Shown: positions 400 to 57,666, counted from the first letter of the stretch. The stretch is DNA of 64,000 nt from Eubacteriales Family XIII. Incertae Sedis bacterium (GCA_031261345.1 JAISKC010000063.1:7490-71489), one strand, 5' to 3'. A program made the numbers and translations. The notes: generated from the letters alone by a model not told the origin.

Positions 400-1866
400 T
401 TAGTCGTGCCTCAGAATGACTAATTGAAATTCACCGTTATCAATGAGATCATCCAGATGCTTATCATCATCGACATCTCCTCTATAACCATCTATTATTA
501 GCAACGTATCTTTCTTATGACCAAATAAAATACGCATTTTATAGCCATATAAAGCTTCCTTACTCATGTCATCCTTTAAAATACTATTTTCAACAGATAG
601 TTCTGAGACAATAGTATCCATTATTGAATCACGAAAAGGCAGCCAATAAACTGCATTGTATTTACTTCGACTATTTCTGATGTATTCCTTAAATAAATTA
701 CGTTTGACTTCATAATCGGAGGCGGGAACAATTACACATCTATTTTGTTGGAGTTTTTTCTTTATATTTATCAACTCATTTGAATGTGTTCTCTTCTTAA
801 GCGCTATAGATTCGATCTCATTACCAAAGAACTCTCTTTGCAAGCTGAGTTCATGAAGTCTACTAAACATATTAATCAGTGTATCAATATCTTGACACCG
901 ACACGAAGGTGCTGGCTCAAGTGTGGCGGATAGAATTTCTTTTACAATGCCAACGCAACGGTGATCAACATTTTCAAGATACCGATTGTCCGAACCCAAA
1001 TTCCAGTTGCCACCGGAAAACAGGATATCGTTGTTTACATCTAAATTGCGATTGGTTAAGAGCCAAAAGAAGACAGCTCCAATCGAAAACAAATCTGTGA
1101 CTTCCGTGATGTCCTTATGTCTGCCAGTTTGCCTTTGTTCAGGTGCCGCCCATTCACTAGAAAAAGAAAGAAATGCGTAGTTTCCATCTTTAATGTCGGA
1201 TACTTTCTGTATCGAATCAAAATCAAAAATGAAAACTATATTTGTGTTTTTTACTTTCAATATATTAGCTGGTTTTATATCAAGATGAACATAGTGATTG
1301 TCGGTTTTATGGTATCGCCTAATTGCCATTGATAAAGATAACATTATTTCGCTAATATCCGTTATCGTTTTAATTTCATCTCTACATTTATTGAGTGGGA
1401 TTCCCTCTGATGATTCCATGACAATATATTCTGTATTGTTACCAGAGAGTATATCTACAGGCGTTATTGTTTGATTTTGATGAACGCGCTCCATATTGGA
1501 ATGAATAATGTATCCATTGAGAAAACGTTTTCGACCTTTCTCAAAAGCGTCTCTTGCTGAATCAGCTATGGTAAGTGTGCCATCTTTCTCTCTTTTTATA
1601 GAATTAACCAGTTGAGAAGGGTAATATTCTTTTATGACCTGAATATGAGGAGCTTCAAGAACCTCATCTCGATATCGCACACTTTCAATTCGTTCTGCTT
1701 TGTAGACAATAGAACTTCCACCTTGACCAAGTACGTCGGTAATTCTGTATTTCATTTTTACTTTTGCACCATCGTCGTCAAAATCATGTAGCAACAGATT
1801 GTAATCAATAGGTAACTCTGCTTTTTCTACATTATCAAACGAGGAAAGTAAGCTATATATGTCCAT
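400..1866 (-). CDS. Hanks-type Ser/Thr protein kinase with an uncharacterised ~150-aa C-terminal domain
   Basis: Kinase motifs present: G-loop GQGGSSIVYKAE, VIKE lysine, catalytic loop HLDIKPANIL, DFD(S) in place of DFG, and AAPE. The C-terminal part (CVIVPASDYEV...TLLIIDGYRGD) looks like a P-loop-less NTPase-like remnant. Confidence 0.8.
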   Translation of the reverse strand: MDIYSLLSSFDNVEKAELPIDYNLLLHDFDDDGAKVKMKYRITDVLGQGGSSIVYKAERIESVRYRDEVLEAPHIQVIKEYYPSQLVNSIKREKDGTLTIADSARDAFEKGRKRFLNGYIIHSNMERVHQNQTITPVDILSGNNTEYIVMESSEGIPLNKCRDEIKTITDISEIMLSLSMAIRRYHKTDNHYVHLDIKPANILKVKNTNIVFIFDFDSIQKVSDIKDGNYAFLSFSSEWAAPEQRQTGRHKDITEVTDLFSIGAVFFWLLTNRNLDVNNDILFSGGNWNLGSDNRYLENVDHRCVGIVKEILSATLEPAPSCRCQDIDTLINMFSRLHELSLQREFFGNEIESIALKKRTHSNELINIKKKLQQNRCVIVPASDYEVKRNLFKEYIRNSRSKYNAVYWLPFRDSIMDTIVSELSVENSILKDDMSKEALYGYKMRILFGHKKDTLLIIDGYRGDVDDDKHLDDLIDNGEFQLVILRHD

Positions 1867-2010: not shown

Positions 2011-3180
2011 GTGCCGAATTTCAACACAATCGAAAAGGAGAAATATCTTCTACAAAATAGAGATCTTGGAACAGATGATGTAATTGCCTATATTACAGAT
2101 GAGCATAACTTCCTTTCGTTTTCAGAAAGCTTGAAACGATTGATATTAAAGGATGATCCTGCTGCCGAAGTTCTATGGAATGAAGATGTAATACATTTAC
2201 TCTTCGATAAGTTTGACAATGCAGGAATTGAGTATCTTGAGGATACTATCAGAGATTGGGTGAATAAGAACGCCAGACCAAAGAAAGAAGAAGGATATGG
2301 TATTAAACTGTGCTTTGCTTTCGATGGCTTTAAGGGGAATCCTGAGAGTGCAGATGATTTTCTACAACGAGACTGCTACCTTGATGGTCTAAGTCCTAGA
2401 GAACCAAATGAAATAATTGTTTGGCACAGTATAGCAAAATCATATACGTATGAGCAATGCGAAGAACTAATATCTCAATATAACGATGCGATATACGGAA
2501 TTACTCCTGCCGAAGCAGACAGATATGAAAGCATCCACACCAAAGTACTGGTGTCAAAATTCTTCTCAAATTCTGCCAAGAAAAACGATGATACGCTTAT
2601 CTCGGATCTTGTCGATTTTTATTCCACAGGAAAATTTGGCAGATACAGAAAGACCGCACACTATTTTTTCACGCAAGATAAAGAACAGATATTGAATGAT
2701 ATGGAAACATATGATGATAATGACAATAAAAGAGTGTCTTACCGTAAGCTGATGAATCTATTGTTTCCTCGCCCAGAAAGAAAGAAAAAGTGTGGCATTT
2801 CTGATGATCAGCAACCAAAAGGCATAGGCGAACCCCGGTCATATAAAGAATCAAAATTCCCCAAAGACATTTACAAAGGTATACCGAACAAAGGTGATCT
2901 CAGTAATTTTGAAAAAGGAAAAGTACCAGTAAGTCGCAAGGCTCTAATTCTATTGTATTTCTCCGTGTATTCTCAGCAAATTTGGACTGATAATGAAGGA
3001 TGGACTATGAAGCAGTGGTTTGATGATTTTCGTACGAAAATGAATATGCGTCTTTCACAGTCCGGAATGTACGAACTATATCATGGAAACCCCTTTGATA
3101 TGATGATCATGTTCTGCGCATACTCCGAAGAACCAGATTACTTCTTTGAAGATTTAATTCAACGTGCTTATAATTGTTGA
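2011..3180 (+). CDS. hypothetical protein (389 aa)
   Basis: Long ORF with a GTG start and AGAGGGGG 8 nt upstream. It is divergent from the kinase gene and converges on the APH-like gene with only a 3-nt gap. No motif recognised. Confidence 0.6.
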   Translation: MPNFNTIEKEKYLLQNRDLGTDDVIAYITDEHNFLSFSESLKRLILKDDPAAEVLWNEDVIHLLFDKFDNAGIEYLEDTIRDWVNKNARPKKEEGYGIKLCFAFDGFKGNPESADDFLQRDCYLDGLSPREPNEIIVWHSIAKSYTYEQCEELISQYNDAIYGITPAEADRYESIHTKVLVSKFFSNSAKKNDDTLISDLVDFYSTGKFGRYRKTAHYFFTQDKEQILNDMETYDDNDNKRVSYRKLMNLLFPRPERKKKCGISDDQQPKGIGEPRSYKESKFPKDIYKGIPNKGDLSNFEKGKVPVSRKALILLYFSVYSQQIWTDNEGWTMKQWFDDFRTKMNMRLSQSGMYELYHGNPFDMMIMFCAYSEEPDYFFEDLIQRAYNC

Positions 3181-3183
3181 GGT

Positions 3184-4023
3184 CTAATGCGCATTAAAGT
3201 AGTTTTCATAAAATTTGCGTTCTGCAGAAGACACAACCCCATTAACTGCTCTATTTAATAGGCGTATAATCAACCATCCATTAATTTTATTTACATATCC
3301 CCGTTTCGAAAGTCCCTCTGTAGCTATGTTTATCCATTCAGTTGCAGCTCCAATTTCACCATCTTCTATCATTGCACCTGCCATTGTTGCAATATCAAAT
3401 GACAACGGTCCATATCTAATGGCCTCAAGATCGATTAAGCATACACCCTTGTCGTTACTAATCAAGACATTGTTGGGTGTAAACGAACCGTGAATTAGCA
3501 CCGAAGGCTCATCCATTATCGTGCCAGTATCGATAAAGTTAATCATCTCACGTAGTGAGAATAATGATTCCGTTTCCATAATGCTACTAATAATCATTGG
3601 TATATTCGGCTTCAGAGAGAACAGATGGTCGGTTCCCGGTATTTCTTGGATATCAATTTTGCAAAGGCTAAATTGATGCAGGGAATCAGAAACCGATTGG
3701 AATGTGGTTTCATCACTTGAATTCATTTCATTCGAAGGGAAGTCCTTTGTAACTAGATAAGGGGTGCTGTCTTTTAGGGAACCTGATGCAATAATTTCAG
3801 GCACAGATGCAATACCTTGTAACTGAAAAAGGGCAGAAGCTTCTCTTTCGATACCAGCAAATACACTATGTGATTTTTCGAATTTCACCCATACATTTGA
3901 ACCATAATCCAACTCAAATTTCCAAGATTCATGCCGCTGATCAATCTCTGGACAGACTCCGTTACGGAGAAAAAACCCTTGCGTTGATAGTATCTCAACC
4001 AACTCCAAATATCTAATATCCAT
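3184..4023 (-). CDS. aminoglycoside-phosphotransferase/choline-kinase-fold protein with a substituted catalytic Asp
   Basis: APH-fold core LIHGSFTPNNVLISNDKGVCLIDLEAIRYGPLSFDIA. The Brenner motif reads HGS rather than HGD. The ATG overlaps the ATP-grasp stop (TAATG). Confidence 0.7.
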   Translation of the reverse strand: MDIRYLELVEILSTQGFFLRNGVCPEIDQRHESWKFELDYGSNVWVKFEKSHSVFAGIEREASALFQLQGIASVPEIIASGSLKDSTPYLVTKDFPSNEMNSSDETTFQSVSDSLHQFSLCKIDIQEIPGTDHLFSLKPNIPMIISSIMETESLFSLREMINFIDTGTIMDEPSVLIHGSFTPNNVLISNDKGVCLIDLEAIRYGPLSFDIATMAGAMIEDGEIGAATEWINIATEGLSKRGYVNKINGWLIIRLLNRAVNGVVSSAERKFYENYFNAH

Positions 4024-5033
4024 TAATTCTTGTTGCTACCATTGGCCAAACGTGATAGTTCAGTTGCTATTGCACAACCTATTGGTAGCCCTGCTAACTC
4101 CTCAAGCCATGCCCACTGTCCATTAGGATTTATTTCGAAGAAAACCCATTCATCATCTTGCGTTACAGCCAAGTCAACGGTTGCAAAAACTAAACCGTAG
4201 CTATTTACAAACTCAGCCAGAGCATTTCTAACTTTTTGCGGAACAATTATCGGTTCGTGCGGAACATTATCGAAATCATAATGTCTCCAATCAAGTTGCG
4301 TCTTCTCCGAAGCTTGAGAATCAATTTTGCATGCAAAAAAATTTTCTCCTACGATTACAACTCTCACTTCGAATTTTTTCGTTATTTTCTCCTGATATAT
4401 TGCCGGTGCAGATAATATCTGTTCGTCAGAGATTTTTTCTTGATTGAAATTCTGAGTGAAAATCATATATTGCTTATCGAAGCTATCGACCAATGGTGTC
4501 CCCGGAGTAATGACTTTTGTTATGAGACCATTTGGAGATGAATCTGCAAATGATTGAACCTCCTGGGGCCGACATGAACACAAAGTAGCAGGTATTTTCA
4601 AACCGTACGATAGAGCTCGATTCAGTTGTTGCACCTTTGGCTTTGCTAATGCTTGAGCATATGTGCTATTTATCCAATCAGAATGAATGAAAGATAGCCC
4701 ATTTTCAAGAAGAGCTATCTTTTGTTCACGAATGTATTGATCGGCCAATCTATCTCCAGTGCCAGTGTCAGGACTCATGGGCGATACTATTCTTCGCCTA
4801 TTCCAAACACAGCCAACTTGACTGGGCAAAACAACCTTTCCTGAATCAACTACATACTCAACATGTGTATGCTTCTCGCCGGAAGCCTCTATGATAATAT
4901 TTGTCTTTTCACCAAGCAAATCAGTCGTCAATAGCTCCCAGCTTTGACCCAGTCGGTCAAGTTGTTTTGTCACAAATGGCAAATGAGAATCTACTGCAAA
5001 AGTTACGAGTAAAACTGTTTGTGGCTCAGTCAT
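4023..5033 (-). CDS. MvdC/MvdD-type ATP-grasp peptide macrocyclase (graspetide ligase)
   Basis: 336 aa and collinear with the microviridin ligase MvdD as I recall it: VLLVTF..D at the N-terminus, CVWNRR, DWRHYD, and FFEINPNGQWAWLE near the C-terminus. The start overlaps the upstream small ORF by 8 nt. Confidence 0.8.
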   Translation of the reverse strand: MTEPQTVLLVTFAVDSHLPFVTKQLDRLGQSWELLTTDLLGEKTNIIIEASGEKHTHVEYVVDSGKVVLPSQVGCVWNRRRIVSPMSPDTGTGDRLADQYIREQKIALLENGLSFIHSDWINSTYAQALAKPKVQQLNRALSYGLKIPATLCSCRPQEVQSFADSSPNGLITKVITPGTPLVDSFDKQYMIFTQNFNQEKISDEQILSAPAIYQEKITKKFEVRVVIVGENFFACKIDSQASEKTQLDWRHYDFDNVPHEPIIVPQKVRNALAEFVNSYGLVFATVDLAVTQDDEWVFFEINPNGQWAWLEELAGLPIGCAIATELSRLANGSNKN

Positions 5034-5190
5034 CAGGTGTGAATTCTTTTACCGGACTTGTTGTCGTAGCTATGCAAGTAGTAGTTCCCTTGCACTTAAT
5101 AGACTCCACATCCGGATATTCCCTATTCTCATAGAGAAAAGGAAGTATACTTTCTGGCTCTTCTACGACAATATTTTCGTTCACATTCAT
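5026..5190 (-). CDS. 54-aa candidate graspetide precursor peptide (not in the ORF track)
   Basis: My own translation is MNVNENIVVEEPESILPFLYENREYPDVESIKCKGTTTCIATTTSPVKEFTPDD. GGGAGGG lies 7 nt before the ATG. The leader has an LPFLYE motif resembling the microviridin PFFARFL. The tail is Thr/Ser/Lys-rich and ends in acidic E..DD. The stop overlaps the ATP-grasp ATG. Confidence 0.7.
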   Translation of the reverse strand: MNVNENIVVEEPESILPFLYENREYPDVESIKCKGTTTCIATTTSPVKEFTPDD

Positions 5191-5234
5191 AATAAGACCC
5201 TCCCACTCAAAAATACTATTGCTTTAATTTTTCA

Positions 5235-5263
5235 ATTATAGAACAGATATCGTTCATTTTCAA
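5235..5263 (-). promoter_or_regulatory. sigma-A-type promoter for the precursor/ATP-grasp module
   Basis: Minus strand reads TTGAAA (5263..5258), an exact 17-nt spacer, then TATAAT (5240..5235). It sits about 45 nt upstream of the precursor ATG. Confidence 0.7.
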
Positions 5264-5299
5264 CCATCTATGCACCATACTTGTGTATGATATCTTCAA

Positions 5300-6085
5300 T
5301 TATTGATAATCCGTAATTATTCTTCTAAGTTCCGTCACCAAAAGAACTGCGGATAAGGGGTTTGGTCTGATTGACAATGCATCAGCAGGTGTATCGTCAC
5401 CCATCCCATTTAGTAGCAAATTTGCCGGATGCCCCGTGTATCTTATCACCTGATTATATACGTCTTTTTCCTTGCATATAATCATTCCGCATTCACCAAT
5501 ATCTATCTGCTTGTTGGGACCAAAACTAAATACGGCAAAATCACCAGTGGTACCACACAATTTGTTTCGATATTTGACCATAAAACTCTGCGAGCAATCT
5601 TCTATTATTTTGACATCAGGTCTATTTATTCTGCCCAATACTCTTTTAATTTTCAAGACATCCACAGGAATAGCATTGTAGTGTGTTGCCACTATAGATT
5701 TTGTTTTGGTTGAAATCAATTCTTCGATTTCATTCACGTTCACTATATTCTTTGCATTGACAGGCGCATATATAGGCTTTGCTCCAAGCGAAACAATCGC
5801 CGCCTCCGAAGCTATCCAATCCACTTCTGGGATTATTACTTCATCGTCTATCCCAACACCAGATACTTGCATGCAAACTCGAAGACCATAGGAAGCAGAA
5901 GGTATTAATCTTGCATATTGACACCCATATAGCTGACACAACAAGGATTCTGATTCCTTGACAGCTCCACTGCCCAATATTTGGCTCGTGTTTCCTAATG
6001 AGTATTCATTTTCTATTTTCAGATATTCAATATATGATTGAATCGCGCCCTCAAGCCATTTCTTATCAGGGTGATATTTATCCAT
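5300..6085 (-). CDS. DegT/DnrJ/EryC1/StrS-family PLP-dependent enzyme (short form)
   Basis: IIEDCSQSF...GDFAVFSFGPNKQIDIGECGMII matches the DegT-family active-site lysine region. I prefer ATG 6085 (4 nt after the AAA+ stop) over the track's TTG 6103. At ~261 aa it is shorter than typical family members (~370 aa). Confidence 0.65.
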   Translation of the reverse strand: MDKYHPDKKWLEGAIQSYIEYLKIENEYSLGNTSQILGSGAVKESESLLCQLYGCQYARLIPSASYGLRVCMQVSGVGIDDEVIIPEVDWIASEAAIVSLGAKPIYAPVNAKNIVNVNEIEELISTKTKSIVATHYNAIPVDVLKIKRVLGRINRPDVKIIEDCSQSFMVKYRNKLCGTTGDFAVFSFGPNKQIDIGECGMIICKEKDVYNQVIRYTGHPANLLLNGMGDDTPADALSIRPNPLSAVLLVTELRRIITDYQ

Positions 6086-6089
6086 GGAT

Positions 6090-7769
6090 TTATGCAATTG
6101 CAATTAATTCTCGAATTCTTTGTTCCAACTTGACTTGGTCAATATTGCCATAATCGTCCAATATGTTTCTGATATATTCTGCTGGAGAAGTATTTTCAAC
6201 AATCCATGGTAGATAGCGCCTAGATGATGTGTATTTCAATGCGTTTAATACTTGCAATTCCTCTCTTGGACCGAATGGGTGCAAGAAATTATCCAAGGCT
6301 TCTGTAAATTCGAATTCTGTAATAGTAGTCTTTCCCACTTCATTTGCAATAATATTTGCTTCGTCTATAATGCCAACAATTTGGCGACCCGACACTTTTT
6401 TGTTTGCTTTTGAAAAGGCATTGATTATTCCAGTCGAATCAATTTGAATATTAGCTCTTTCTGCAACCTTCTCCGCAATGCTAGCCTTCTCTTCAGGAGA
6501 ATCAGCCTCCAAAACAGGTAACACTTTCAATCTACTTCCCGCGAAAGCACTATCAATGAGCTCCGGTTTGTTGGATAGACCTATTAGCGATATTCCATTA
6601 TTGCTACCTGTGTCTCCAAGCCACTCCAGCAAAATACCTCTAAGGGCATTATCAGTTTCTGAGCTTTCAGTTCTGGAGTTCGTTCTCTCCCCAAAACCTT
6701 GGCTTTCGCACTCATCCACTATCACAAGAATTGGTGCCATACTTTCAATAATGGAAATTACTCTTCTCAGTTTCCTTTCACTTTCGCCATACCACTTGTC
6801 TTTTACTGCAGACAAAGAAACAGCCGGCACACCCATTTCCCGCGCTATTGCAACGCTTACGTAGGTTTTTCCTGTCCCGGGAGGACCTACAAGAAGAAGC
6901 CTCAAAGTTTTCCCTTTCATATCATTTACATACTTTTTGACGTTTTCCATCCCAGCAACATCTCTGTTTAAATCTGTGTCTTCTGTACGCACAAAAAGCA
7001 TTCCTTGTGCTGCCTCATTTATCAAATTCACCTTAAATTCGACAACATCACTAATTTTCAAAGGATTCTCCCTACTCGTCAATTTCCGAAGCCTAGATAT
7101 CGCATCTATTGTAAAGCCACCTGTGCTATTTGCAAGTTGATTGATATCAACTTCAGGAGAGCAGACAATTGGAGGCTTTGCAGTTGCCGCACCCATTATG
7201 GTTATCGCCTCCCTTCTCTCATCAACCCCAGGGAGTCTTAAGGATACCGACTGAATACCGATTGACTGCAAAACCGTTGAATCTATATCGTCCGTTCTGG
7301 AGATTAGTATAATTTGATGCCCCTGATTGTTCCATCTACTATCTGTAGTGGCACGACTAACAATATACTCTCGAATTGTTGAGGAGGATGGTTCATCTAT
7401 GCCACCTTGGCAAGGCATAATGTGCTCAGCAAAATCGAAGATGATTGTTGTCCTTCCTGCGCCTTCCCTCTCAAGGTTTCTAAAAATGCCAGTGATTACT
7501 TCAATTGGGCTTCTGAGATTGTCCCTATCGTCTTGTAGTTCAGAAAGCACATCCTCATTTCCAGTGACAATATTTTCAATTCCTCGCTCAAATGAATAGT
7601 AAACAGCAGGAATACCTTGAAATTCCGATTCCTCGGCGATAATCCTTCGAATCGGAACTAGGTGTCCTCCGTAAATAAACAAATCACTTGTATTGGAAGT
7701 AAAATTCAACACAGTATTTGTTTTTAATGCATCGCTGAAGCTTTTTACAATAACATCTGTTCTACTCAT
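6090..7769 (-). CDS. AAA+ ATPase (classical clade) with a degenerate N-terminal AAA-like lobe
   Basis: Walker A LLLVGPPGTGKT, Walker B ILVIVDECES, and a second-region-of-homology-like GLSNKPELIDSAF. The N-terminal ~270 aa keeps Walker-B-like TTIIFDFAE and LPGVDERREAI but has no P-loop. Confidence 0.85.
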   Translation of the reverse strand: MSRTDVIVKSFSDALKTNTVLNFTSNTSDLFIYGGHLVPIRRIIAEESEFQGIPAVYYSFERGIENIVTGNEDVLSELQDDRDNLRSPIEVITGIFRNLEREGAGRTTIIFDFAEHIMPCQGGIDEPSSSTIREYIVSRATTDSRWNNQGHQIILISRTDDIDSTVLQSIGIQSVSLRLPGVDERREAITIMGAATAKPPIVCSPEVDINQLANSTGGFTIDAISRLRKLTSRENPLKISDVVEFKVNLINEAAQGMLFVRTEDTDLNRDVAGMENVKKYVNDMKGKTLRLLLVGPPGTGKTYVSVAIAREMGVPAVSLSAVKDKWYGESERKLRRVISIIESMAPILVIVDECESQGFGERTNSRTESSETDNALRGILLEWLGDTGSNNGISLIGLSNKPELIDSAFAGSRLKVLPVLEADSPEEKASIAEKVAERANIQIDSTGIINAFSKANKKVSGRQIVGIIDEANIIANEVGKTTITEFEFTEALDNFLHPFGPREELQVLNALKYTSSRRYLPWIVENTSPAEYIRNILDDYGNIDQVKLEQRIRELIAIA

Positions 7770-7778
7770 TTTTTTCTC

Positions 7779-8444
7779 CTATACTGTGAGTTTTCCTTTT
7801 ACGGCCTTATTTTTCCCTTTTACAGTCGTCTTGCTCTTCTGCGAGACAACATCATCCGTTTTAAATTGCTTCCCCCTTGTTTCGGGAACCAAAAGAATCC
7901 CCTCTTCAAGCGAGATATTCTTTTCTCGGGCAATTGTGGCCCCTACTGCAACCAGACCTCCACCTTTAGTGTCTCTATGAGGGACATGCTTTGTTTTCTT
8001 CAGCTTGATACCGTTTTCCTCAATCTTGTCCTCAAACTCCTTTTGCTTTGCTTCACAGGAGGAGTCGGACAGACCAACCCAGTCCGTTTTTATACTTCCA
8101 GCATTCTCAACAAGAACGAAGACCGACTCGTGATTTTTCGTTGCTCCAATAACATAATTATCATTTTCATTTCTAACAATATTTGTAATGTTGAAATCGA
8201 GACTTTGCAGAGAATCCTGAACAATGAATGACGTAACCAATGATGTTACCTGCGTTGATGTCAAATCGAGACTGCCGCCATTTGATAGCAAATTACTGAC
8301 CTCCGTTTTAAGTGTTGTTGCTTCTCCTAGCAAAGTGATATTTTTGGTTTTCAAACTCTCGTTTTCTGTTGCGACTAAATTCTTTACGCAAACATCTGTC
8401 AATAGTGTGTCAAGTGAAACTGCTACTGAATCATATGTACTCAT
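7779..8444 (-). CDS. hypothetical protein (221 aa, Lys-rich C-terminal tail)
   Basis: ATG 8444 is preceded by AGGAGGAG, and the longer track start is rejected. It sits 16 nt after the upstream stop and 9 nt before the AAA+ start. No motif recognised. Confidence 0.6.
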   Translation of the reverse strand: MSTYDSVAVSLDTLLTDVCVKNLVATENESLKTKNITLLGEATTLKTEVSNLLSNGGSLDLTSTQVTSLVTSFIVQDSLQSLDFNITNIVRNENDNYVIGATKNHESVFVLVENAGSIKTDWVGLSDSSCEAKQKEFEDKIEENGIKLKKTKHVPHRDTKGGGLVAVGATIAREKNISLEEGILLVPETRGKQFKTDDVVSQKSKTTVKGKNKAVKGKLTV

Positions 8445-8460
8445 AATTTCTACTCCTCCT

Positions 8461-9723
8461 TTAATCAAATACTTCATCTCTAGGATCAACTATTAGCGGG
8501 TCTGATTCTGGCAGTGGTGGCTCTGGCTCCGGATATGATTCGACAGGTGGTGGGTCTTGAACTTGACTTTGTGCCTGCCGCCTATATAACTCCGTCAATC
8601 CAGCATCATTTATTTTACGTTCCAAGTCCGCTTGGAGATTTCGTAGGTATACATCTCTCTCATCATCTATCTCATTGACTTTGAGTGCGATATCTTCAAT
8701 GTCCGCTTTTGCATATTTAATGTTATTGAGGTGCTTGCCCTTCTTGTCCAAGATGACGCCGACGGCCTCAATAAGAATAGCCAATGTTCCGATAAAGGGG
8801 AACACCTTTTTATTTCGATCGCGTTCTTCTTCCACACCTTGTATTTCATCCTCGAATATTTTTTCAATTGCCGGAGTATATGTGCTATTTGCAATATTTA
8901 TCGTTATGCTTGCATTTATCTTGCTTAAATCACGATTGTAAATTTGTACTGCTCGGTCTGACGAAAACCAAAAGGCCGATACGATTATAATAATGAATAC
9001 GGCAACTCCTGCCACAATGCATTTGAGAAATGGGACGGTTTTCCTTTCCACAAACTCACCAACCAAGTGAAAATCATCCCATCCCACAAGAAAATAATTT
9101 GCACAACCTGCTACAGCCAACGAAACAATCAGGGAAATACCAGCGGCAAGAATCAACTGTATAGTTTGATTGTCTCCCCAGAGATTAAAGTCTTTAAAAA
9201 AAATAAATTCAAAAATGACAGTGGCAATAAACCCACCCCAATGCATCCAGGAAAGAAGCGTATTTGGGACTTTCTCAAATCTGTTTGTCTCTTTGATAAC
9301 AAGTCCGCTTGTAATCCCATGTAATTTATCCGCATCTTGGAGTCCATATATAGAATTTGATTCTCTTCCCTCAAGAAGCGCGTCTATTGCTTCTATATAG
9401 CCTTGAACGCAAACTCTTTGTGTTGCGATTTCACTTTCCAAGGTTTCATCATTGCAAAATTCCAACAGCTCATCAAAAATCGGTGGAATATAAGACAAGG
9501 TCTCTTTTTCATCTCGGAGACTATCATTGTAATTCGGACTCTCCAATAAAGTAATCCGAATCTCTTCTTGAGCCCAAAAGAGAGGATCTCTTTCCATTAG
9601 GTTTCTGTTGTTTTCCCTTGCAGCCGCAGCAGCGGCCCTGCGAAGAACATCCTGCCTTTTTTTTTCGTGCCAGTCTCTCCACCACTTCCCTGTAAAAAAA
9701 TCCACTATAATATTATCCGACAT
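8461..9723 (-). CDS. integral membrane protein (~4 TM) with coiled-coil and Pro/Glu-rich C-terminus
   Basis: RBS AGGAGAG. Hydrophobic segments WGGFIATVIFEFIFF, IQLILAAGISLIVSLAVAG, FLKCIVAGVAVFIIIIVSAFWF and VFPFIGTLAILIEAVGVIL. C-terminus reads PPPVESYPEPEPPLPE. Confidence 0.65.
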   Translation of the reverse strand: MSDNIIVDFFTGKWWRDWHEKKRQDVLRRAAAAAARENNRNLMERDPLFWAQEEIRITLLESPNYNDSLRDEKETLSYIPPIFDELLEFCNDETLESEIATQRVCVQGYIEAIDALLEGRESNSIYGLQDADKLHGITSGLVIKETNRFEKVPNTLLSWMHWGGFIATVIFEFIFFKDFNLWGDNQTIQLILAAGISLIVSLAVAGCANYFLVGWDDFHLVGEFVERKTVPFLKCIVAGVAVFIIIIVSAFWFSSDRAVQIYNRDLSKINASITINIANSTYTPAIEKIFEDEIQGVEEERDRNKKVFPFIGTLAILIEAVGVILDKKGKHLNNIKYAKADIEDIALKVNEIDDERDVYLRNLQADLERKINDAGLTELYRRQAQSQVQDPPPVESYPEPEPPLPESDPLIVDPRDEVFD

Positions 9724-9731
9724 AATCTCTC

Positions 9732-10643
9732 CTAATTAATAAATTCCGCAACCGCTACAGTAGTCTGCTCAGGATTATAGTCAATCAATCCGATGCTATA
9801 TTGCTGAAGAAATTCTTTTAGCAAAGCCAATCTTTTCTCCCCTTCACTAGCACTGTCTGGGGTGGCTAATATCAAAACAGCCTGTGCATTATCAAAAGCC
9901 CACGGTGTAATATTGTCGGGTTCGATATTATCAATCAAATCGCTTGCAATCAAAATTGACACATCTTTATTTCCTCGCAAAGCTGACAATCCAGCCTGAA
10001 TGGTATTGTAAATACCACTCCCGCCACCAACTATTTCTAGCTGTGTATTCCTTATCAGTTCGCTGGCTTCTTGTGCAGAAATTAATGCTTCCTCATAGGC
10101 TTTGTCCCAATTTTCCTTTTCAGCCTGCCAAGTTGCTGCTTCCATTGCATCATCACCTATTGGCATAGCCGCTAAAGCAGGAACACCCTTCCTGACAATA
10201 ACAACATCAGATTTATTGCCGGTTTGCTGTGGATTTGCCCCGATTGCCAGAATACGAAGCCTCAGTTCCGGAATCTCATTCACACCATCTGTAACTTGAG
10301 TCGGCTTTTCAGTAATATTAACGCTATCCGCCAAAGCCTCCTGGACACCTATATAAAAACTATAATCTGTTGAATTAGTCGTGTCGATGATTGCGAGTTT
10401 TTGTCTTACGGTTAACTCATTCGCTCCAACAGGAGTAGCCGATTCCCCAGATTCATTATTAAAGAGCGCATCTAAGTGAGTTTTTTCTAGGATTGTATCA
10501 AGCGTACTTGATGAGAACATCTTTAGGAGTACAACCACAATTGCAATTATTGCAATTATTGCAATTATCGGCTTGAAAAAGGGTCTATTTCCACGACCAT
10601 ATCGCCTTCCATTCCTTCCTCTGCTATTTCTGCCCCTACGCAT
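9732..10643 (-). CDS. N-terminally membrane-anchored protein, possible vWA-like domain
   Basis: Arg-rich N-terminus (MRRGRNSRGRNGRRYGRGNR) followed by the TM segment IIAIIAIIAIVVVLL. The vWA call rests on weak hints: the DxTxS motif AIIDTTNST and ILIASDL. Confidence 0.55.
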   Translation of the reverse strand: MRRGRNSRGRNGRRYGRGNRPFFKPIIAIIAIIAIVVVLLKMFSSSTLDTILEKTHLDALFNNESGESATPVGANELTVRQKLAIIDTTNSTDYSFYIGVQEALADSVNITEKPTQVTDGVNEIPELRLRILAIGANPQQTGNKSDVVIVRKGVPALAAMPIGDDAMEAATWQAEKENWDKAYEEALISAQEASELIRNTQLEIVGGGSGIYNTIQAGLSALRGNKDVSILIASDLIDNIEPDNITPWAFDNAQAVLILATPDSASEGEKRLALLKEFLQQYSIGLIDYNPEQTTVAVAEFIN

Positions 10644-10836: not shown

Positions 10837-12858
10837 TTATGATACTCTTTTCAGTGGGAAAGAGCACGGCGATGTATCAACTGTATAGTCGCCATAGACT
10901 TGTACCCATCTGATATTATTGTTATCCTTTACAAGGATTTCAAAGTGATAATTGCTGTTTACTGCACCATATAGAGTCGTCATCATTGTGAGGATACTTG
11001 TGCCCTCAAAATTTATAGGGATAGAGTTGCCTTCTGCTTTACCAACTGTATATGTGCCTGTTTCGGCATATTCGCCCCAGTCCTCACCAAGATTCAGTGC
11101 GTATGTGAATTCTCCATTACTAAAGAATTCAAGTGTGTAATCTTGCCCTGAATCCCACTTTCCTATGAGGTTAAAGTCACCAGCATTTCTATCAGGCTCT
11201 GGTTCAGGTGTGGGCTTCTCTTCAGGGATATTCGTGTTATCCTCTTCATCATACTGTGGTGGTTCTATACGGCTACTGTTTAGATCCGTGGTGATTCCGG
11301 CTTCGGTAAATGCCTTCCTAATGTTTTCAACATCAATACTTGTCAATAGTCCATCAGACATCATGTATTCTGCCATTCGAACTGTTGCCGTTCCAAATTC
11401 ATTCATTGTGCAGTCTGAAGGAATCATATGCTCTGTGCCATACCATAACTTTGCAAACTCTGCGACTCTACCTTTTGGAGCCCCCTCAGTCCCCAAAAAT
11501 TCTACGCCAATATTATATGCAACATAGTCGATAATAAGAGAATTTGTATGCACTCCACCATTGTCTTCACTCGTCCATACGTAGTTGTCCATAGTCTTTT
11601 TGTTTGTGTAGTTGCGAATCACATTACGCCAATCGCAATGCCCGGTGACATTATGTTCAACAATCTCCCCAAAGATATCAGAGACGGCCTCATTGATTGC
11701 TCCCGACTGATCTCTGTATATCAATCCTTCGGGAGAAACGACCGTATCAGAAACTCCATGCGTAAATTCATGGGCGACAACATCCAGATTTCTTGAATAT
11801 TCCTTGCTACCTTTCTTTGACACAACAAAACTCATCCATCCCTCACCAGTATCTGAGTCGTATGAGAAGTACGCATTATCAGCTCCAAGAATATTTACAT
11901 ATATAGGCAACTTACTATTTCTATTGTCAAACTGTGTTCTATTCAAAGTATTGCTGAAAAAATCATATGTGCGAGCCATGTTGCCCATTGCATCAATTGC
12001 AGACTTGTTGTTATCCGCAGATGTAACAGGCTTGGCTGATTTAATATTTTCATATTTCTTATATTTGTTCGTATAAGTCTGGAGGTTGCGACCTTTATCG
12101 ATCATTAGTCTCTGCCCATTCTCATCTTCATAGGGAATGTCATATTCTGAGTCATCTTGTCCTCTTGCCTTCTCAAATGCACTACAGACTTCACTCAACG
12201 CATCAATAACTTTACCGGATTTCGCATCTACGAATATTGACATTGACACATATGTGTCCGAATAACCATTAGCCTTAATTTCATATGCAAGAATAGGATC
12301 CGCGCCTATAGAATATATGACTAAACCCTTTGCTGTTGAAGAAATGAAATCTTCGTTACAATCCTGCTTTTTCACAAGATATTGTTCCGCTGCATCCATT
12401 GCCTCTTGTTCTGTGACTTTAGGATTTGTTTCAATATTTGATATCGCTAGATAATTACCGCTTGCTCCTTGTGAAACACCATTGTCACCAGCAACAACTA
12501 CCATACTGCGCCCATATACTTCTATTCCATTATAAATTTGCTGAGTGTGATAATAAGTTCTTGAATCAATAGTATTATCGCCAGCCGGAATAAACACTTC
12601 GGTAGCATTCACGAATCCATAATCTTCGGAAAATACATTGAGCGAATCAATTGCACTTGCTGCATCAGTAATAAGAATATCAGTATATGTGCCATCATAC
12701 GTAACATATATTGACTCTTCTTTTTCAACATCACCTTTTGCTGAGTGTCCTTGAAAAAAAGGAATTGCAACAAACCATCCGATTGCAGCTATCGCAAGCA
12801 CAACGATAAAGGCAATAATGATACCGACTCTAACTTTTCCCGATGTAGATTTGAGCAT
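10837..12858 (-). CDS. M4 (thermolysin-family) zinc metalloprotease, N-terminal membrane anchor, extra C-terminal domain
   Basis: HEXXH motif in VVAHEFTHGV and the third zinc ligand in GAINEAVSDIFGE. TM segment VGIIIAFIVVLAIAAIGWFVAI. I use ATG 12858 (GGAGGG 7 nt upstream) rather than the track's 12921. Confidence 0.85.
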   Translation of the reverse strand: MLKSTSGKVRVGIIIAFIVVLAIAAIGWFVAIPFFQGHSAKGDVEKEESIYVTYDGTYTDILITDAASAIDSLNVFSEDYGFVNATEVFIPAGDNTIDSRTYYHTQQIYNGIEVYGRSMVVVAGDNGVSQGASGNYLAISNIETNPKVTEQEAMDAAEQYLVKKQDCNEDFISSTAKGLVIYSIGADPILAYEIKANGYSDTYVSMSIFVDAKSGKVIDALSEVCSAFEKARGQDDSEYDIPYEDENGQRLMIDKGRNLQTYTNKYKKYENIKSAKPVTSADNNKSAIDAMGNMARTYDFFSNTLNRTQFDNRNSKLPIYVNILGADNAYFSYDSDTGEGWMSFVVSKKGSKEYSRNLDVVAHEFTHGVSDTVVSPEGLIYRDQSGAINEAVSDIFGEIVEHNVTGHCDWRNVIRNYTNKKTMDNYVWTSEDNGGVHTNSLIIDYVAYNIGVEFLGTEGAPKGRVAEFAKLWYGTEHMIPSDCTMNEFGTATVRMAEYMMSDGLLTSIDVENIRKAFTEAGITTDLNSSRIEPPQYDEEDNTNIPEEKPTPEPEPDRNAGDFNLIGKWDSGQDYTLEFFSNGEFTYALNLGEDWGEYAETGTYTVGKAEGNSIPINFEGTSILTMMTTLYGAVNSNYHFEILVKDNNNIRWVQVYGDYTVDTSPCSFPLKRVS

Positions 12859-13023
12859 ATATTCGTTCCCTCCATATTGGTATATAATTAACTTACACCA
12901 ATTATATATGATGGAATTCACGAATGGAAAATAAGCTCCACCTTACCCGCCGACCTATTACATGATAAAATGGTCAATAGTAAGAACTAGGGAAACCAAT
13001 AAGTTGCAAAATCCACAATATGA

Positions 13024-13860
13024 TTAAATGTGATTCAATACGCTACACATATCATCATATCCCATCTTCGCACAGACCTCTAATTTGCTTTGATTTGCAG
13101 TAGTTCTTTTGACCATTTTTGACATATCACTTGGATGACATACCAATACCTTACTTTTATCGGCTTTGTTTTGTAAATAGTCCATCATAATATTTGATTC
13201 TCCATTTCTTTCAATAATTTCCTCAACTAATGCATCATTATATTTTGACAAAAATAACTTATATGCCTTTCGCATTAAGAACCCCATTTCCTTAGGTCTG
13301 GCACAAATATCTTTTGTCAGAATAACAATTGTCAAATCATATTCTTCGATTAATTCATCTTGAAAAGGAATTGGAGTGGCAACACCACCATCCACATAGC
13401 CTTCTCCCTCTATGTCAACAATTTTGCCATACAGAAGAGGGAGAGCCGAGGTTGCCCGTATAAGCTCATAAATATCAGCTTTTCCATCATTACGATATTG
13501 AAAAGGAGCTCCTGTTTCTGCATCAGTTAGCATAATATCAAATACAATTTTTGATTTTTCCAACAAATCTATTTCTAGCGGATTCTTAGCTTTTAATGTG
13601 TCAACCATAAAATCAATATCTACAATTTTTTTTAATCTGAGAAAATTTACAAAATCCTTATTACTCAAATATCTAACATAAAAATCCACTGCCTGCTTCG
13701 TCCTCTTTGAAATGTAATAAGAAGCATTAATTGCTCCAGCCGATGAACCCACTATATATTTTATGTCATCAGCATATTTTGATTCCGCTAAAGCATCTAA
13801 TGCTGCCATTGAATAAACACCACGCATTCCGCCTCCTTGAACAACAACCGCTATTTTCAC
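13024..13860 (-). CDS. patatin-like phospholipase (copy 1)
   Basis: QGGGMRG oxyanion motif, GSSAG nucleophile elbow and VDGGV catalytic Asp. GTG start with GAGAGGTG upstream, 1 nt after the stop of copy 2. Confidence 0.85.
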   Translation of the reverse strand: MKIAVVVQGGGMRGVYSMAALDALAESKYADDIKYIVGSSAGAINASYYISKRTKQAVDFYVRYLSNKDFVNFLRLKKIVDIDFMVDTLKAKNPLEIDLLEKSKIVFDIMLTDAETGAPFQYRNDGKADIYELIRATSALPLLYGKIVDIEGEGYVDGGVATPIPFQDELIEEYDLTIVILTKDICARPKEMGFLMRKAYKLFLSKYNDALVEEIIERNGESNIMMDYLQNKADKSKVLVCHPSDMSKMVKRTTANQSKLEVCAKMGYDDMCSVLNHI

Positions 13861-13861
13861 C

Positions 13862-14737
13862 TTAGCACCTCTCTTTGCTTTGAATATACAATAAATATTT
13901 TTTTATTTCTTTTATAACATTTTGCATATCAATATGCCCCAATGCTGAACATTTCTCTAGTTTCTCTTTATTTGAAGTAACTATCGAAGCCCTATCCTTT
14001 AAATTGGATGGAAAACACACGAAAACATTACTATTACTAATTTTGTATTGTAAAAAATCCATCGTAGCATTGTATTCAACGTTCTCACCAACAAGTTTTT
14101 CTACAACATTATCCGAATACTTCGATAAAAACACTTTGAAAACATTTTTTAAAAACCTACCCATCTTTTTTTTTCGATCATTTATATCACAAGTCAAAAT
14201 CACAATAACTAGATCTGAATGTTCTATCAATTCATTATTTAATGGTAAAGGCGATGCAATTCCACCATCACAGTATAATTCACCTTCTATAGAAACAAAC
14301 CTATTGTAAAAAAATGGAAGAGCAGCTGTAGCTCTTATTAACTCATAAATGTCAACACTGCCATCATATGTAAAAAGTTCCGGGTTAGCGGTTTTCTCTT
14401 CAGTTAATGCCACATCTAATTTGATGTTTGAAGTTCTCAACAACTCTATGTTTAAAGGATTTTCCAACTTCAGGGTGTCAACCATGAAATCAATGTCTAC
14501 TATCTTATTAAATCTATGTAAATTAATAAAATTCTTATTACTGAGATAATTAATATAGAAATCCACAGCCTCCTTTGTCCTTTTAGAAACAAAATATGAC
14601 GCATTAATAGCTCCAGCAGAACTTCCGACAATATACTCAACATCTTTCGCCAATTCCGAGTTTGCCAATGCATCTAAAGCTGCCATAGAATACACACCAG
14701 CCATACCTCCACCCTGAACAACAACAGAAATTTTCAA
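13862..14737 (-). CDS. patatin-like phospholipase (copy 2, Arg of the oxyanion motif replaced)
   Basis: QGGGMAG, GSSAG and CDGGI. It is clearly paralogous to copy 1 over its full length. The TTG start overlaps the NTPase stop (TTGA). Confidence 0.85.
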   Translation of the reverse strand: MKISVVVQGGGMAGVYSMAALDALANSELAKDVEYIVGSSAGAINASYFVSKRTKEAVDFYINYLSNKNFINLHRFNKIVDIDFMVDTLKLENPLNIELLRTSNIKLDVALTEEKTANPELFTYDGSVDIYELIRATAALPFFYNRFVSIEGELYCDGGIASPLPLNNELIEHSDLVIVILTCDINDRKKKMGRFLKNVFKVFLSKYSDNVVEKLVGENVEYNATMDFLQYKISNSNVFVCFPSNLKDRASIVTSNKEKLEKCSALGHIDMQNVIKEIKKYLLYIQSKERC

Positions 14738-16719
14738 TTTACTTTCTCCTTTTTATTTCGCTGCAGATTGTAATTGCTCAGATTAGAGAGAACAATCTCT
14801 GATTTATGAATATAGGAATTCATCCCTGAAATATGCATGTGCCTTACAGCAATGGCGAAAAAAATGAGAACAACATAACATATAAGATTTATTATATCTA
14901 AATCTAAATGAAAATAGGATAACGGTAAAAAATATGGTGGTAATATCTCATAACAATATGCAATTCCGAGAGCTAAAACAAAAGGCAGTAAGCATACTGT
15001 TAAGGCACCAATGTCATGAATTTTTGGACATTTATGTTTTTTAAAAGGACGTTCTTGAAAAAAACACAATCTAATACCTAAGGACAAACCGCCAATAGCA
15101 ATGGATATAATAAAAAATCTTTCCGAGACAAAAATTGCTGTTAAAAAAACGCAAATCGACATTATAGCTACTGTAAATAAGGAGCCTAAATTGTTATTTA
15201 AAGAATTTGTTTGATGAAGCAAAATCTCTTTGAAAAAACTATAAATATATAGTGTGAATAGTATATGAGTCATAGCCGCGCCTATATATTCACTGTGAAG
15301 ACCTAGGGATAGATTAAAGCTAAAATGATTACATTCAAATACGAATAATCTAAGGATAATCAATCCCAAAGTAACTACTTTGATAACGGTCGCAACGTTC
15401 AAAAGGTTTTTCAAAAGGTTTTCTGTTTTACTAGTATTTTGCTCGTCCAGAACTTTACTTTTCGCAATGCTTTGCATAGAATAAAATACTGATGAATCAG
15501 TATACCTTTTTGAAAATTCAGCCATTTTCAAAGAAACAAAATCATGAAACAACCTGTAATGGTATGTCCTGTCATTGATATTCATTTTCCTTTTAATAAT
15601 ACTAATTTCGGGGCTCAGCAAATAATCTAGCGTAGCTTTCAAATCGTCCGTCACCACAGTACTAGAAAAATCCAACTTGCACGAAGCATTAATCTGGCGA
15701 GGTGATAATTCACTTGCTATACTCTCACCTGAACTGAGTGCGCAAAGTACCTTTCTAGTTAAATTTCTATTCGGTGAAGCCTCAATAATTCTTTCAAAAT
15801 AGCGAACGAATGCGTCATTAGTATCTGTAAATACTATTTTTACACCCTGATTTTTTTCGAATTGAAATTGTGCGAAAGATACATTAGTTTCGATAAACAA
15901 TAAATTATCATCTTTTCCTATTATATCTATAAATACCCCTTTTTCGTCTTCATCGTCTTCCGAATTTTCTTCAGTTAAAAATGTAGATGTCCGAAAGTAA
16001 CTATCGATTAGAGTTTTATCAATCTCTGATCCCTCATTAATTAACGGCACAATTACTAAATTGTTATGCGTAAACACTAGATTAGTAATTCGTTTATCAA
16101 TCCATTGAATAATATCAAAAATTTTATCATCCCTAATGCAAAAAATTTTGAAAATTTTATCATTCTTATTATTAATAAATTTATTCAATTCATTATGGGC
16201 ACCATCTGCCTCGAGAAAATACCTTTCAAATTGGTCGAAAATAACGACTTGTTTCCCTGCAAACTTATTTTGTTCGATATCATTATAATAAACCGACTCT
16301 GTCATAAATGTTAACGGTCCACCATTTTCCCCTTTTATTTTATTATTATTGAAAATTTCTTTAACTAGGCTAGATTTACCAGAACCACTTTTCCCTGTAA
16401 CAATCGCAAAAGGCATTCCACTATTATATTTTTCTTGCAATTCATTTATAATATCGTTAAAGCATCTCCTTTCAATAAAATTTGCATTGAATGGATTAAA
16501 GGATTCGGAATTCTTTTCATTAAAATTTTTTGCACCGCCCTTTTTCCAAATAATTACAAGACCTATTCCTAATATTAGAAAAATTATGGGGTAAATAATC
16601 CATCTGATTCTAGTAGGTAATTCCTGACAAATTGAAGCCACTGGAAAAGTAAAAATCAAAATTAAAACAGTTTCTTGCTTCTGCATATTATCAATAATAG
16701 AACTCACTATTCTTTTCAT
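14734..16719 (-). CDS. transmembrane P-loop NTPase (STAND-like Walker B)
   Basis: Walker A TGKSGSGKSSLVKE and Walker B VVIFDQFERYF. There are two N-terminal TM segments and about 6 C-terminal TM segments. I prefer ATG 16719 (AAGGGAAA upstream) over the track's 16788. Confidence 0.75.
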   Translation of the reverse strand: MKRIVSSIIDNMQKQETVLILIFTFPVASICQELPTRIRWIIYPIIFLILGIGLVIIWKKGGAKNFNEKNSESFNPFNANFIERRCFNDIINELQEKYNSGMPFAIVTGKSGSGKSSLVKEIFNNNKIKGENGGPLTFMTESVYYNDIEQNKFAGKQVVIFDQFERYFLEADGAHNELNKFINNKNDKIFKIFCIRDDKIFDIIQWIDKRITNLVFTHNNLVIVPLINEGSEIDKTLIDSYFRTSTFLTEENSEDDEDEKGVFIDIIGKDDNLLFIETNVSFAQFQFEKNQGVKIVFTDTNDAFVRYFERIIEASPNRNLTRKVLCALSSGESIASELSPRQINASCKLDFSSTVVTDDLKATLDYLLSPEISIIKRKMNINDRTYHYRLFHDFVSLKMAEFSKRYTDSSVFYSMQSIAKSKVLDEQNTSKTENLLKNLLNVATVIKVVTLGLIILRLFVFECNHFSFNLSLGLHSEYIGAAMTHILFTLYIYSFFKEILLHQTNSLNNNLGSLFTVAIMSICVFLTAIFVSERFFIISIAIGGLSLGIRLCFFQERPFKKHKCPKIHDIGALTVCLLPFVLALGIAYCYEILPPYFLPLSYFHLDLDIINLICYVVLIFFAIAVRHMHISGMNSYIHKSEIVLSNLSNYNLQRNKKEKVN

Positions 16720-57483: not shown

Positions 57484-57666
57484 TTGATTCCCCCCGTATA
57501 TAAAGAGTAGTATTGTTCTACAAACGCACAAAAACCTGTGTCATTTGCCCCCGTCGGCGAATCCGACAGTTCTATGATGTCAGAGGCCACAAATTCCCTG
57601 CCATTATCGGAAAAAAATTTGAGCCAACAACATCCTCAAGCATTACAACCCAATTGTCGTACTTAA

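Follow-up and report, generated by a model that had tools for sequence, protein, structure and literature searches.

A candidate three-gene graspetide operon with a kinase-fold accessory that lacks the catalytic aspartate

The cassette and its precursor peptide

We analyzed a 64,000-nucleotide stretch of DNA from an Eubacteriales Family XIII. Incertae Sedis bacterium (GCA_031261345.1, JAISKC010000063.1:7490-71489; hereafter the window), focusing on three tightly spaced minus-strand open reading frames (ORFs) at 3184-5263, which form a cassette of about 2.1 kb. They encode a peptide of 54 aa, an ATP-grasp protein of 336 aa and a protein of 279 aa with the fold of aminoglycoside phosphotransferases (APH) and choline kinases (Table 1). 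The ATG of the ATP-grasp gene sits within the final codons of the peptide gene (GATGACTGA), an overlap of 8 nt that an earlier note, made from the sequence alone, had already described. The stop codon of the ATP-grasp gene and the ATG of the APH-fold gene share one base (TAATG), so that these genes are translationally coupled. The operon ends at 3184, because its 3' neighbor (2011-3180, plus strand) is convergent. The earlier note had seen the first two genes as a graspetide-like module for peptides that are ribosomally synthesized and then modified post-translationally (RiPPs). Both genes stood up to analysis, but the module as drawn there missed the APH-like gene (3184-4023), which falls inside the range of positions it gave, is conserved and is the module's most unusual feature. 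The precursor ORF is also not unannotated, as had been thought: in GenBank, where the genome is a "Clostridiales Family XIII bacterium" metagenome-assembled genome (MAG), it is LBN34_07245 and the ligase is LBN34_07240, both hypothetical proteins. Upstream of the peptide gene, the strong ribosome-binding site is where it had been placed. The "textbook" promoter is indeed the top-scoring site within 2800-5600, matching 11 of 12 consensus positions, but the promoter scan found 14 sites in the region versus 8.9 +/- 3.2 in shuffled sequence. We therefore treat it as a consensus match only.

The small ORF belongs to a family. Loci around relatives of the ligase were fetched (2 + 4 by exact-protein look-up, 80 species-representative genomes and 80 metagenomes) and scanned by script. 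In 25 of them, representing 15 distinct cassettes, a small co-directional ORF ending in (G/T/S/N)(P/S)DD lies just 5' of the ligase gene, which is the LPFLY...T-rich...DD pattern that the earlier note had suggested looking for beside homologous ligases. Compared with the window enzyme, the ligases of these 25 loci reach about 183 bits or more; the exception at this level is L095 (185 bits), which has another type of precursor. L088, whose 5' flank is cut off, is the sole locus where the precursor ORF could not be seen. None of the approximately 140 loci with more distant ATP-grasp genes carries such a small ORF in the same scan. A profile built from 12 precursors retrieved 59 clusters at 90% identity from the protein database, and about 60 distinct relatives could be aligned. 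Their hosts belong to the Bacillota, Actinomycetota, Pseudomonadota and Verrucomicrobiota, and include a Propionibacteriaceae MAG, the cultured Gordonia phosphorivorans CCUG 61533, Sulfurirhabdus and Haloferula; the hosts of the fetched loci have 43-68% G+C. Because it is conserved beside homologous ligases in genomes spanning 35-68% G+C, the small ORF is more than a chance frame, and the hidden gene proposed in the earlier note is real.

The precursors share a leader motif with the consensus P-[LF]-[LV]-[YF]-x-[RK]-R-E, in which P is found in 60/60 sequences, [R/K] in 55/60, R in 60/60 and E in 51/60, followed by Y in 48/60. A leader motif made of Pro, two hydrophobic residues and an aromatic one ("Phh...aromatic") has been described as general for graspetides (PMC8939145). 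Judged by its residues, the motif of this family is of the same type, and the ligase presumably binds the leader. The core is highly conserved as well. Two positions ahead of the TT pair there is a small residue (G/A) in 58 of the 60 precursors. The donor columns that follow are T (54), T/S (60), S/T (54), C/S/T (60, with Cys in 54) and a later T/S (58), and the tail columns are P (53), D/E (60), Y/W/F (57), G (51), P (58), D (60) and D (60). This final DD pair is the C terminus across the 60 precursors, one sequence having an additional E. Most precursors have the core TTSCQ(K/T)T(S/R)NPxDYGPDD, and the window peptide falls in a minority subclade with TTx(C/S)...TxP(V/A/I)x-E-(F/Y/S)-x-PDD. 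In its numbering, T36, T37, C39 and T42/T44 are the nucleophiles that are conserved, with E49, D53 and D54 as the acids.

By its sequence, the precursor has an architecture of the graspetide type, compatible with up to three ester rings, and the column restricted to Cys, Ser or Thr suggests a fourth nucleophile. We infer the linkages, the ring count and the topology from these conserved columns. The earlier note had correctly counted 7 Thr, 1 Ser and 3 Lys in the tail, along with two Cys, and had proposed an omega-ester/omega-amide layout. The ester part fits the conserved donors and acceptors, but the amide part finds no support: conservation is lacking for the three Lys of the window peptide, and lactam rings were therefore rejected. 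Similarly, both Cys are present in the tail, but only the C39 column is conserved (Cys/Ser/Thr in 60/60) and C33 is not, and a function for both was therefore rejected. The core does lie outside the microviridin consensus and matches no family model. With about 60 distinct precursors sharing leader and core, and no match among the described groups that were checked, the idea of a new graspetide family has gained support. One variant deserves mention on its own: in L177 (68-915) the core (...GTETSCETTFPKGTLDYGPDD) has Glu replacing the first Thr, and a DUF6624 gene lies upstream. Carter et al. 2026 (PMC13097080) report DUF6624 to be common in several further groups of graspetides.

The ligase and its kinase-fold companion

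Profile searches place the 336-aa protein among the enzymes that modify graspetides. Its best NCBIfam model is TIGR04187 (ATP-grasp ribosomal peptide maturase, SAV_5884 type; 9e-56), followed by the MvdC (6e-51) and MvdD (2e-44) models, all three over the full length. The grasp-with-spasm model gives 9e-29 and the RimK family model 3e-6. When the profile of the ligase clade was searched against solved structures, it matched MdnC (5ig9; 2e-64), MdnB (7e-64), AMdnB (7e-63), CdnC (4e-52) and PsnB (8e-24), with RimK structures at about 2e-5. The MvdC/MvdD-like assignment of the earlier note has thus survived the comparison with RimK that it had called for, and the motifs on which it was based (VLLVTF, CVWNRR, DWRHYD and EINPNGQWAWLE) are all found in the translation. 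Both D248-W249-R250 and an NPNGQW-W-EE segment are invariant across the clade, and the former, judged by position and sequence, presumably corresponds to the "DFR" motif, which is reported as critical in graspetide synthetases (PMC13097080). Its nearest relatives in a large protein database stand apart at 39-50% identity, followed by a step down to 37% or less; SAV_5884 itself is 32% identical over 216 residues. On these sequence comparisons, we take the protein, the single ATP-grasp across the 64-kb window, to be a graspetide synthetase that falls outside every named subfamily and is not a RimK.

The third protein, named aminoglycoside phosphotransferase family protein in GenBank, scores 38.4 bits against PF01636 (cut-off 23.2). 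Its AlphaFold2 model, computed from a 43-sequence alignment, has a predicted local distance difference test score of 91.2 and a predicted template modeling score of 0.90. The top Foldseek matches of the model are APH(3')-IIIa, APH(4)-Ia, APH(9)-Ia and macrolide phosphotransferases (Mph), with probability 1.00 to APH(3')-IIIa, APH(4)-Ia, Mph and others; choline kinases and the FN3K D217S mutant crystallized with ATP are matched as well. Among solved structures, the family profile finds viomycin kinase best (1e-7), then APH(3')-IIIa (1e-6), and also matches macrolide, corramycin and capreomycin phosphotransferases. The "HGN" in the viomycin kinase sequence of the PDB is probably an engineered mutant, to judge by the Cph001 D189N structures described in PMC10730852.

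The alignment to APH(3')-IIIa equates K47 with K44, E61 with E60, N185 with N195 and D198 with D208. The catalytic D190 of that enzyme (HGDLGDSN) is S180 in the window protein (HGSFTPNN). Across 43 sequences at 16-30% identity to the window protein, K47, E61, G179, S180, N185, D198, E200, R203, G205 and D210 are invariant, and such invariance among divergent sequences indicates that the active site is under selection. S180 and N185 are likewise invariant in a set of 10 sequences. An exhaustive search of 1.84 billion representatives revealed (H/L/Q)GS in every match with a locatable motif down to about E = 1e-8; HGD was found only among weaker matches, beyond about 1e-8. In the peptide phosphotransferase Cph001, the changes D189A and D189N abolish activity (PMC10730852). 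The third protein thus has a complete kinase fold and a selected ATP/Mg site, and is without the general base needed by its canonical relatives. It is best described, from alignment and model, as a structural member of the PF01636 fold and not as a canonical enzyme of that family.

This protein accompanies the ligase and the precursor closely. An APH-fold homologue lies 3' of the ligase in 18 of the 20 non-redundant loci with readable downstream DNA, in all four phyla (the window, L001, L088, L007, L003, L008, L009, L089, L090, L094, L097, L010, L091/L171, L012, L167, L168, L173 and L175). Start-stop overlaps between the two genes are frequent (TAATG in the window, ATGA in L003 and L088). No APH-fold homologue was found in the approximately 140 loci with more distant ATP-grasp genes. 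Look-ups that started from the kinase gave the same picture: all four sampled members lie directly 3' of an MvdD-type ligase, although the contig of L176 holds only the C terminus of the ligase. The presence of the kinase-fold gene also goes with a residue of the core. The column of T36 is Thr in 18/18 kinase-bearing loci, and Ile (GTISSTQ...) or Asp (ATDTSCQ...) in the two kinase-less ones, L170 and L172, which come from one study. This comparison covers 20 loci, as the contigs of further variants in the T36 column (column 20) end inside the ligase. Asp at the Thr site, or Glu in P0182, would look like a phosphomimetic replacement.

A few loci show what can happen to the third gene. L095 (1044-2783), from a neighboring ATP-grasp clade, has a different precursor (...TATQTMTAGGRDFDGDSDWVELPG) and, 3' of the ligase where the kinase would be, a gene for a 166-aa protein; it shows that the accessory tracks the precursor type sharply. 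In L170 (8001-16162; core GTISSTQKTWNPPDYGPDD), a TY-Chap1 peptide-binding-chaperone-like gene takes the kinase's place behind the ligase, and further 3' there are ClpB-like AAA_2 genes and a type III CRISPR-Cas (Cmr2/Cmr3/RAMP) locus. L091 (2292-4126) and L171 (8001-9832) are the same cassette in two independent assemblies; ligase residues ~80-154 are missing and the kinase is frameshifted, and this is probably a decaying copy. Finally, in Gordonia phosphorivorans CCUG 61533 (L008, 4675-5740), otherwise the most accessible cassette host, the APH-like gene falls into two ORFs whose reading frames differ, owing either to a frameshift or to a sequencing error.

Table 1. Features of the cassette in the window
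Feature	Coordinates	Strand	Details and basis
Promoter-like site, sigma-70 type	5235..5263	-	TTGAAA (5263-5258), 17-nt spacer, TATAAT (5240-5235)
Ribosome-binding site GGGAGGG	5198..5204	-	7 nt 5' of the precursor ATG; read from the sequence
Precursor peptide gene, 54 aa + stop	5026..5190	-	Translation MNVNENIVVEEPESILPFLYENREYPDVESIKCKGTTTCIATTTSPVKEFTPDD
Leader recognition motif P17-F-L-Y-E-N-R23-E24	5119..5142	-	60-sequence alignment
Predicted core peptide G35-D54, GTTTCIATTTSPVKEFTPDD	5029..5088	-	Column conservation; putative leader/core boundary
MvdC/MvdD-type ATP-grasp peptide macrocyclase gene, 336 aa	4023..5033	-	Profile and structure-library matches
ATP-grasp D248-W249-R250	4284..4292	-	Invariant in the clade
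APH/choline-kinase-fold gene, 279 aa	3184..4023	-	PF01636 match, AlphaFold2 model, Foldseek
APH-fold catalytic loop H178-G179-S180-F-T-P-N-N185	3469..3492	-	Alignment to APH(3')-IIIa HGDLGDSN
APH-fold D198-L-E200, Mg-binding Asp and invariant Glu	3424..3432	-	D198 = D208 of APH(3')-IIIa

A proposed pathway and its rivals

We consider it likely that the cassette is a self-contained, three-gene RiPP operon for a graspetide (omega-ester peptide), with a dedicated APH-fold accessory that acts on the same peptide. In this scheme, the 54-aa precursor would be made first, and its leader PFLYENRE would dock on the MvdC/MvdD-type ATP-grasp. This enzyme would spend ATP to form acyl phosphates on the side-chain carboxylates of E49, D53 and D54, and would close rings onto the hydroxyl or thiol side chains of T36/T37, C39 and T42-T44. 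The product would be a compact C-terminal peptide with several rings, held by up to three links of the omega-ester, or possibly thioester, kind. The APH-fold protein, which keeps its ATP/Mg2+ site and has an invariant Ser for the Asp, would be the dedicated accessory acting on this peptide. Leader removal and export, if any, would depend on unlinked functions, or the product could act inside the cell. What the accessory does is a more tentative matter. The leading candidate, which we put forward with some doubt, is an ATP-dependent, non-canonical and probably slow Thr kinase acting on T36, the first Thr of the TT pair; any phosphorylation, like the biological role, is putative.

Several observations weigh against parts of this scheme. 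The ligase is a divergent member that lies under the curated cut-off of every NCBIfam graspetide subfamily (189 versus 350 bits). Ser at the catalytic position argues against efficient O-phosphoryl transfer by the third protein. Given that the two kinase-less loci have near-identical leaders, the correlation between Thr and kinase may result from a single loss event. Finally, neither a protease nor an exporter belongs to the conserved set, so that the cassette does not by itself account for the fate of the peptide.

The loss of a catalytic residue with retention of nucleotide and Mg ligands is a pattern typical of ATP-binding pseudokinases, and it is the pattern found here, with Ser for the catalytic Asp in every member and the ligands kept. 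The APH-fold protein could thus be a silent partner that binds ATP and, in a complex with the ligase, either stabilizes it or presents the leader or core to it, the product having ester rings only. Substitutions at the same position have been used experimentally to kill related kinases (Cph001 D189A/N; FN3K D217S), the translational coupling to the ligase suggests a matched stoichiometry, and the chaperone-like TY-Chap1 gene occupies the same position in the kinase-less L170. There is also a precedent for a graspetide synthetase that depends on a partner, as MirB needs MirC to make rosaritide (PMC13097080). However, the Ser and both Mg ligands are strictly invariant in very divergent sequences, beyond what a scaffold would seem to need, and two loci manage without the protein. 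We find a silent partner somewhat unlikely, and rank it slightly below an action on T36 because of the correlation between Thr and kinase, which is a thin basis. A different proposal is that the protein carries out other ATP-dependent chemistry that needs no general base, e.g., the activation of the C-terminal alpha-carboxylate or of an Asp so that one more ester or thioester can form. Some enzymes with a kinase fold, such as SidJ, adenylate carboxylates. Four nucleophile columns face three acidic side chains plus an invariant free C terminus, and the invariant Ser occupies a substrate-facing position next to an intact ATP/Mg site, where it would avoid repelling a substrate whose D-Y-G-P-D-D tail is strongly anionic. 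Yet this idea is purely conjectural, ATP-grasp enzymes alone explain multiple rings in other graspetides, and we know of no APH-family member that activates carboxylates; we hold it to be quite unlikely.

The remaining explanations take the protein for a conventional kinase, or dismiss the cassette altogether. Enzymes of the viomycin, capreomycin and corramycin type are peptide phosphotransferases for self-resistance (PMC10730852), and they are among the solved structures that the family profile matches, with viomycin kinase on top. The third protein could then protect the producer by phosphorylating the mature peptide. This is improbable: the catalytic Asp, essential in those enzymes, is absent here, no exporter is linked to the cassette, and the high conservation of the core contrasts with the diversification usual for antibiotic RiPPs. 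A lanthipeptide-like route, where T36 would be phosphorylated, the phosphate eliminated, and C39 added to the resulting dehydrobutyrine (Thr i, Cys i+3), finds a parallel in the APH-like kinases that do so in class V lanthipeptides and thioamitides (PMC9486802), and the T-x-x-C spacing is kept in 54/60 precursors. But there is no HopA1-like lyase/cyclase gene among the neighbors in the window or in related loci, the Cys is replaced by Ser or Thr in 6/60 precursors, including those of the kinase-keeping L003, L008 and L012, and here too the missing catalytic Asp stands in the way, so that we see very little chance for this route. All that favors the notion of a chance frame next to a housekeeping ligase of the RimK/glutathione-synthetase type is that the ORF is short and that the ligase matches Pfam models weakly. 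This notion has a negligible probability, being refuted by the scores of the maturase models, the match to MdnC, the 59 precursor clusters and the conservation across 60 sequences.

Genomic surroundings and relation to known systems

The cassette has no conserved companion gene for a protease, exporter, GCN5-related N-acetyltransferase (GNAT), methyltransferase or lyase, and the neighbors differ in every locus examined. The earlier note had rightly stated that a GNAT and an ABC exporter are absent; none accompanies the cassette as a conserved gene in related loci either. The M4 (thermolysin-like) metalloprotease that it had mentioned is real (10837-12921, minus strand, with PepSY/FTP propeptide motifs), but its suggested role in leader removal was rejected, since it is not conserved beside the cassette elsewhere. 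The same is true of two tandem patatin-like phospholipases (13024-14737, minus strand) and of a 684-aa protein with weak STAND/AAA_16 NTPase matches (14734-16788, minus strand), neither of which is conserved beside the cassette in other genomes. The neighbors are often mobile or defense-type genes. In the window, a Ser/Thr protein kinase (400-1866, minus strand; PADLOC models PD-T4-6 and mad6, 1e-15) and an AAA ATPase (6090-7769, minus strand; weak IetA match, 3e-11) flank the cassette, which suggests a defense-island-like neighborhood. Other loci have IS110 and DDE transposases, NERD-kinase, RelA/SpoT-RyR and type III CRISPR-Cas genes as neighbors. The PADLOC models did not match the ligase or the APH-fold protein as defense proteins, and in its base composition the cassette shows no G+C anomaly that would point to recent acquisition.

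These surroundings, together with the unusually conserved core (mostly TTSCQKTSNPxDYGPDD) and the lack of a protease or exporter, are the reason to consider a role in signaling or conflict. One could imagine a mobile three-gene system producing an intracellular peptide, in which the kinase-fold enzyme with Asp replaced by Ser performs new chemistry on a ribosomal peptide. Such chemistry may be, for example, an out-of-the-ordinary modification of Thr, or the activation of a carboxylate to form a fourth link, perhaps a thioester with the conserved Cys. We regard this as unlikely.

Other parts of the window are described here for completeness. A DegT/DnrJ/EryC1-type aminotransferase ORF of 267 aa (5300-6103, minus strand) is C-terminally truncated: of the 360 profile positions, it covers 25-200. 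It overlaps the gene for the AAA ATPase. Its end lies 110 nt 5' of the precursor gene and may mark the site of a rearrangement or of the cassette's insertion. In 2011-3180 (plus strand) and 7779-10643 (minus strand), four ORFs (236-420 aa) have no match in Pfam, NCBIfam or PADLOC. Two very large ORFs (40531-46491 and 51919-57531, both on the minus strand) encode 1986 and 1870 aa.

Graspetides are a fast-growing class of RiPPs, valued for rigid, protease-resistant and often protease-inhibiting scaffolds. Their groups are emerging by the dozens, and the accessory chemistry poses a clean, directly testable question. The family described here would add a graspetide group with a C-terminally anchored and highly conserved core, in which the conserved Cys/Ser/Thr position could give a natural thioester. 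It would also be the first case found of a kinase-fold protein without the catalytic Asp as a fixed part of a graspetide pathway. This raises a concrete problem of enzymology: what does an ATP-binding, APH-fold protein that looks kinase-dead do to a ribosomal peptide? The cassette is compact, occurs in both Gram-positive and Gram-negative phyla, and is present in the cultivable Gordonia phosphorivorans.

The best-known relatives of the system are the microviridins (MdnA with MdnB/MdnC or MvdC/MvdD). The two share the fold and domain order of the ATP-grasp, the Pro-hydrophobic-aromatic motif of the leader, and a core with Thr donors and Asp/Glu acceptors; the Thr...Pro...Asp segment of the cassette's peptide even resembles TxKYPSD. 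They differ in most other respects. Microviridin clusters have two ligases and a GNAT, whereas here there is one ligase, no GNAT among the neighbors, and a kinase-fold accessory. The microviridin leader has PFFARFL, here it is PLL[FY]x[KR]RE (PFLYENRE in the window), and the microviridin core TxKxPSDx(E/D)(E/D) contrasts with TTx[C/S]...T...[D/E]-Y-G-P-D-D at the C terminus, where no Lys is conserved and no lactam is expected. Membership in the microviridins was rejected on these grounds: their core and leader motifs are absent, the ligase scores are below the MvdC/MvdD equivalog cut-offs, and there is one ligase.

Other systems resemble the cassette through its third protein. The rosaritide system (MirA/MirB/MirC) also has a precursor, a ligase and an enzyme-like third protein without an expected catalytic feature, whose gene is strictly co-conserved. 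However, the partner has a SurA/PpiC-like chaperone fold in rosaritide and a kinase fold with an intact ATP site here, and the dependence of the ligase on it is shown in the former and hypothesized in the latter. The LanK/LanY dehydratases of class V lanthipeptides and thioamitides (CaoK, LxmK, TvaC) also include an APH-family protein that is dedicated to a ribosomal peptide and recognizes its leader (PMC9486802). Unlike the protein studied here, those kinases retain the catalytic residues and have a HopA1-like lyase as partner, whereas our cassette has no lyase and Ser in place of Asp. The closest solved sequences to the third protein, Vph and Cph of viomycin and capreomycin self-resistance, share its fold and take cyclic peptides as substrates, but these are non-ribosomal peptides, the catalytic Asp is needed, and there is no link to an ATP-grasp.

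The literature on graspetide diversity provides the nearest parallel. We did not find DYGPDD or TTSCQ in the open literature searched, and YGPDD occurred in two unrelated papers only. Carter et al. (PMC13097080) print representative precursors for groups 25-41, and none of these resembles those of our family. Precursors ending in xPDD and the host genera were not found in the searchable supplementary text of Carter et al. 2026 and Makarova et al. 2022, although such an absence is not proof; in the accessible text of the latter, APH is not among the frequent graspetide neighbors. The census of Carter et al., the most recent one, has 43 graspetide groups; phosphotransferases are often present in two of them, 29 and 37, which are "found only in Actinomycetota". 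The partner in group 29 is a phosphatase or a histidine-kinase-like ATPase. Group 37 comprises 29 predicted, uncharacterized biosynthetic gene clusters, with PF01636 in 62% and TIGR04186 precursors in 65% (PMC13097080). It shares with our cassette the association of a graspetide synthetase and a PF01636 protein. But the one representative precursor compared (from Embleya hyalina, ...NYTSTQDQGGVRRKDDPK) is unrelated (hhalign probability 0.4%), TIGR04186 is found in 0/12 precursors of our family, and group 37 is reported from Actinomycetota only, whereas our family spans four phyla. Taken together, the sequence comparisons indicate a new, uncharacterized graspetide family with a non-canonical, kinase-like accessory, undescribed in the searchable open literature and following a logic akin to that of group 37.

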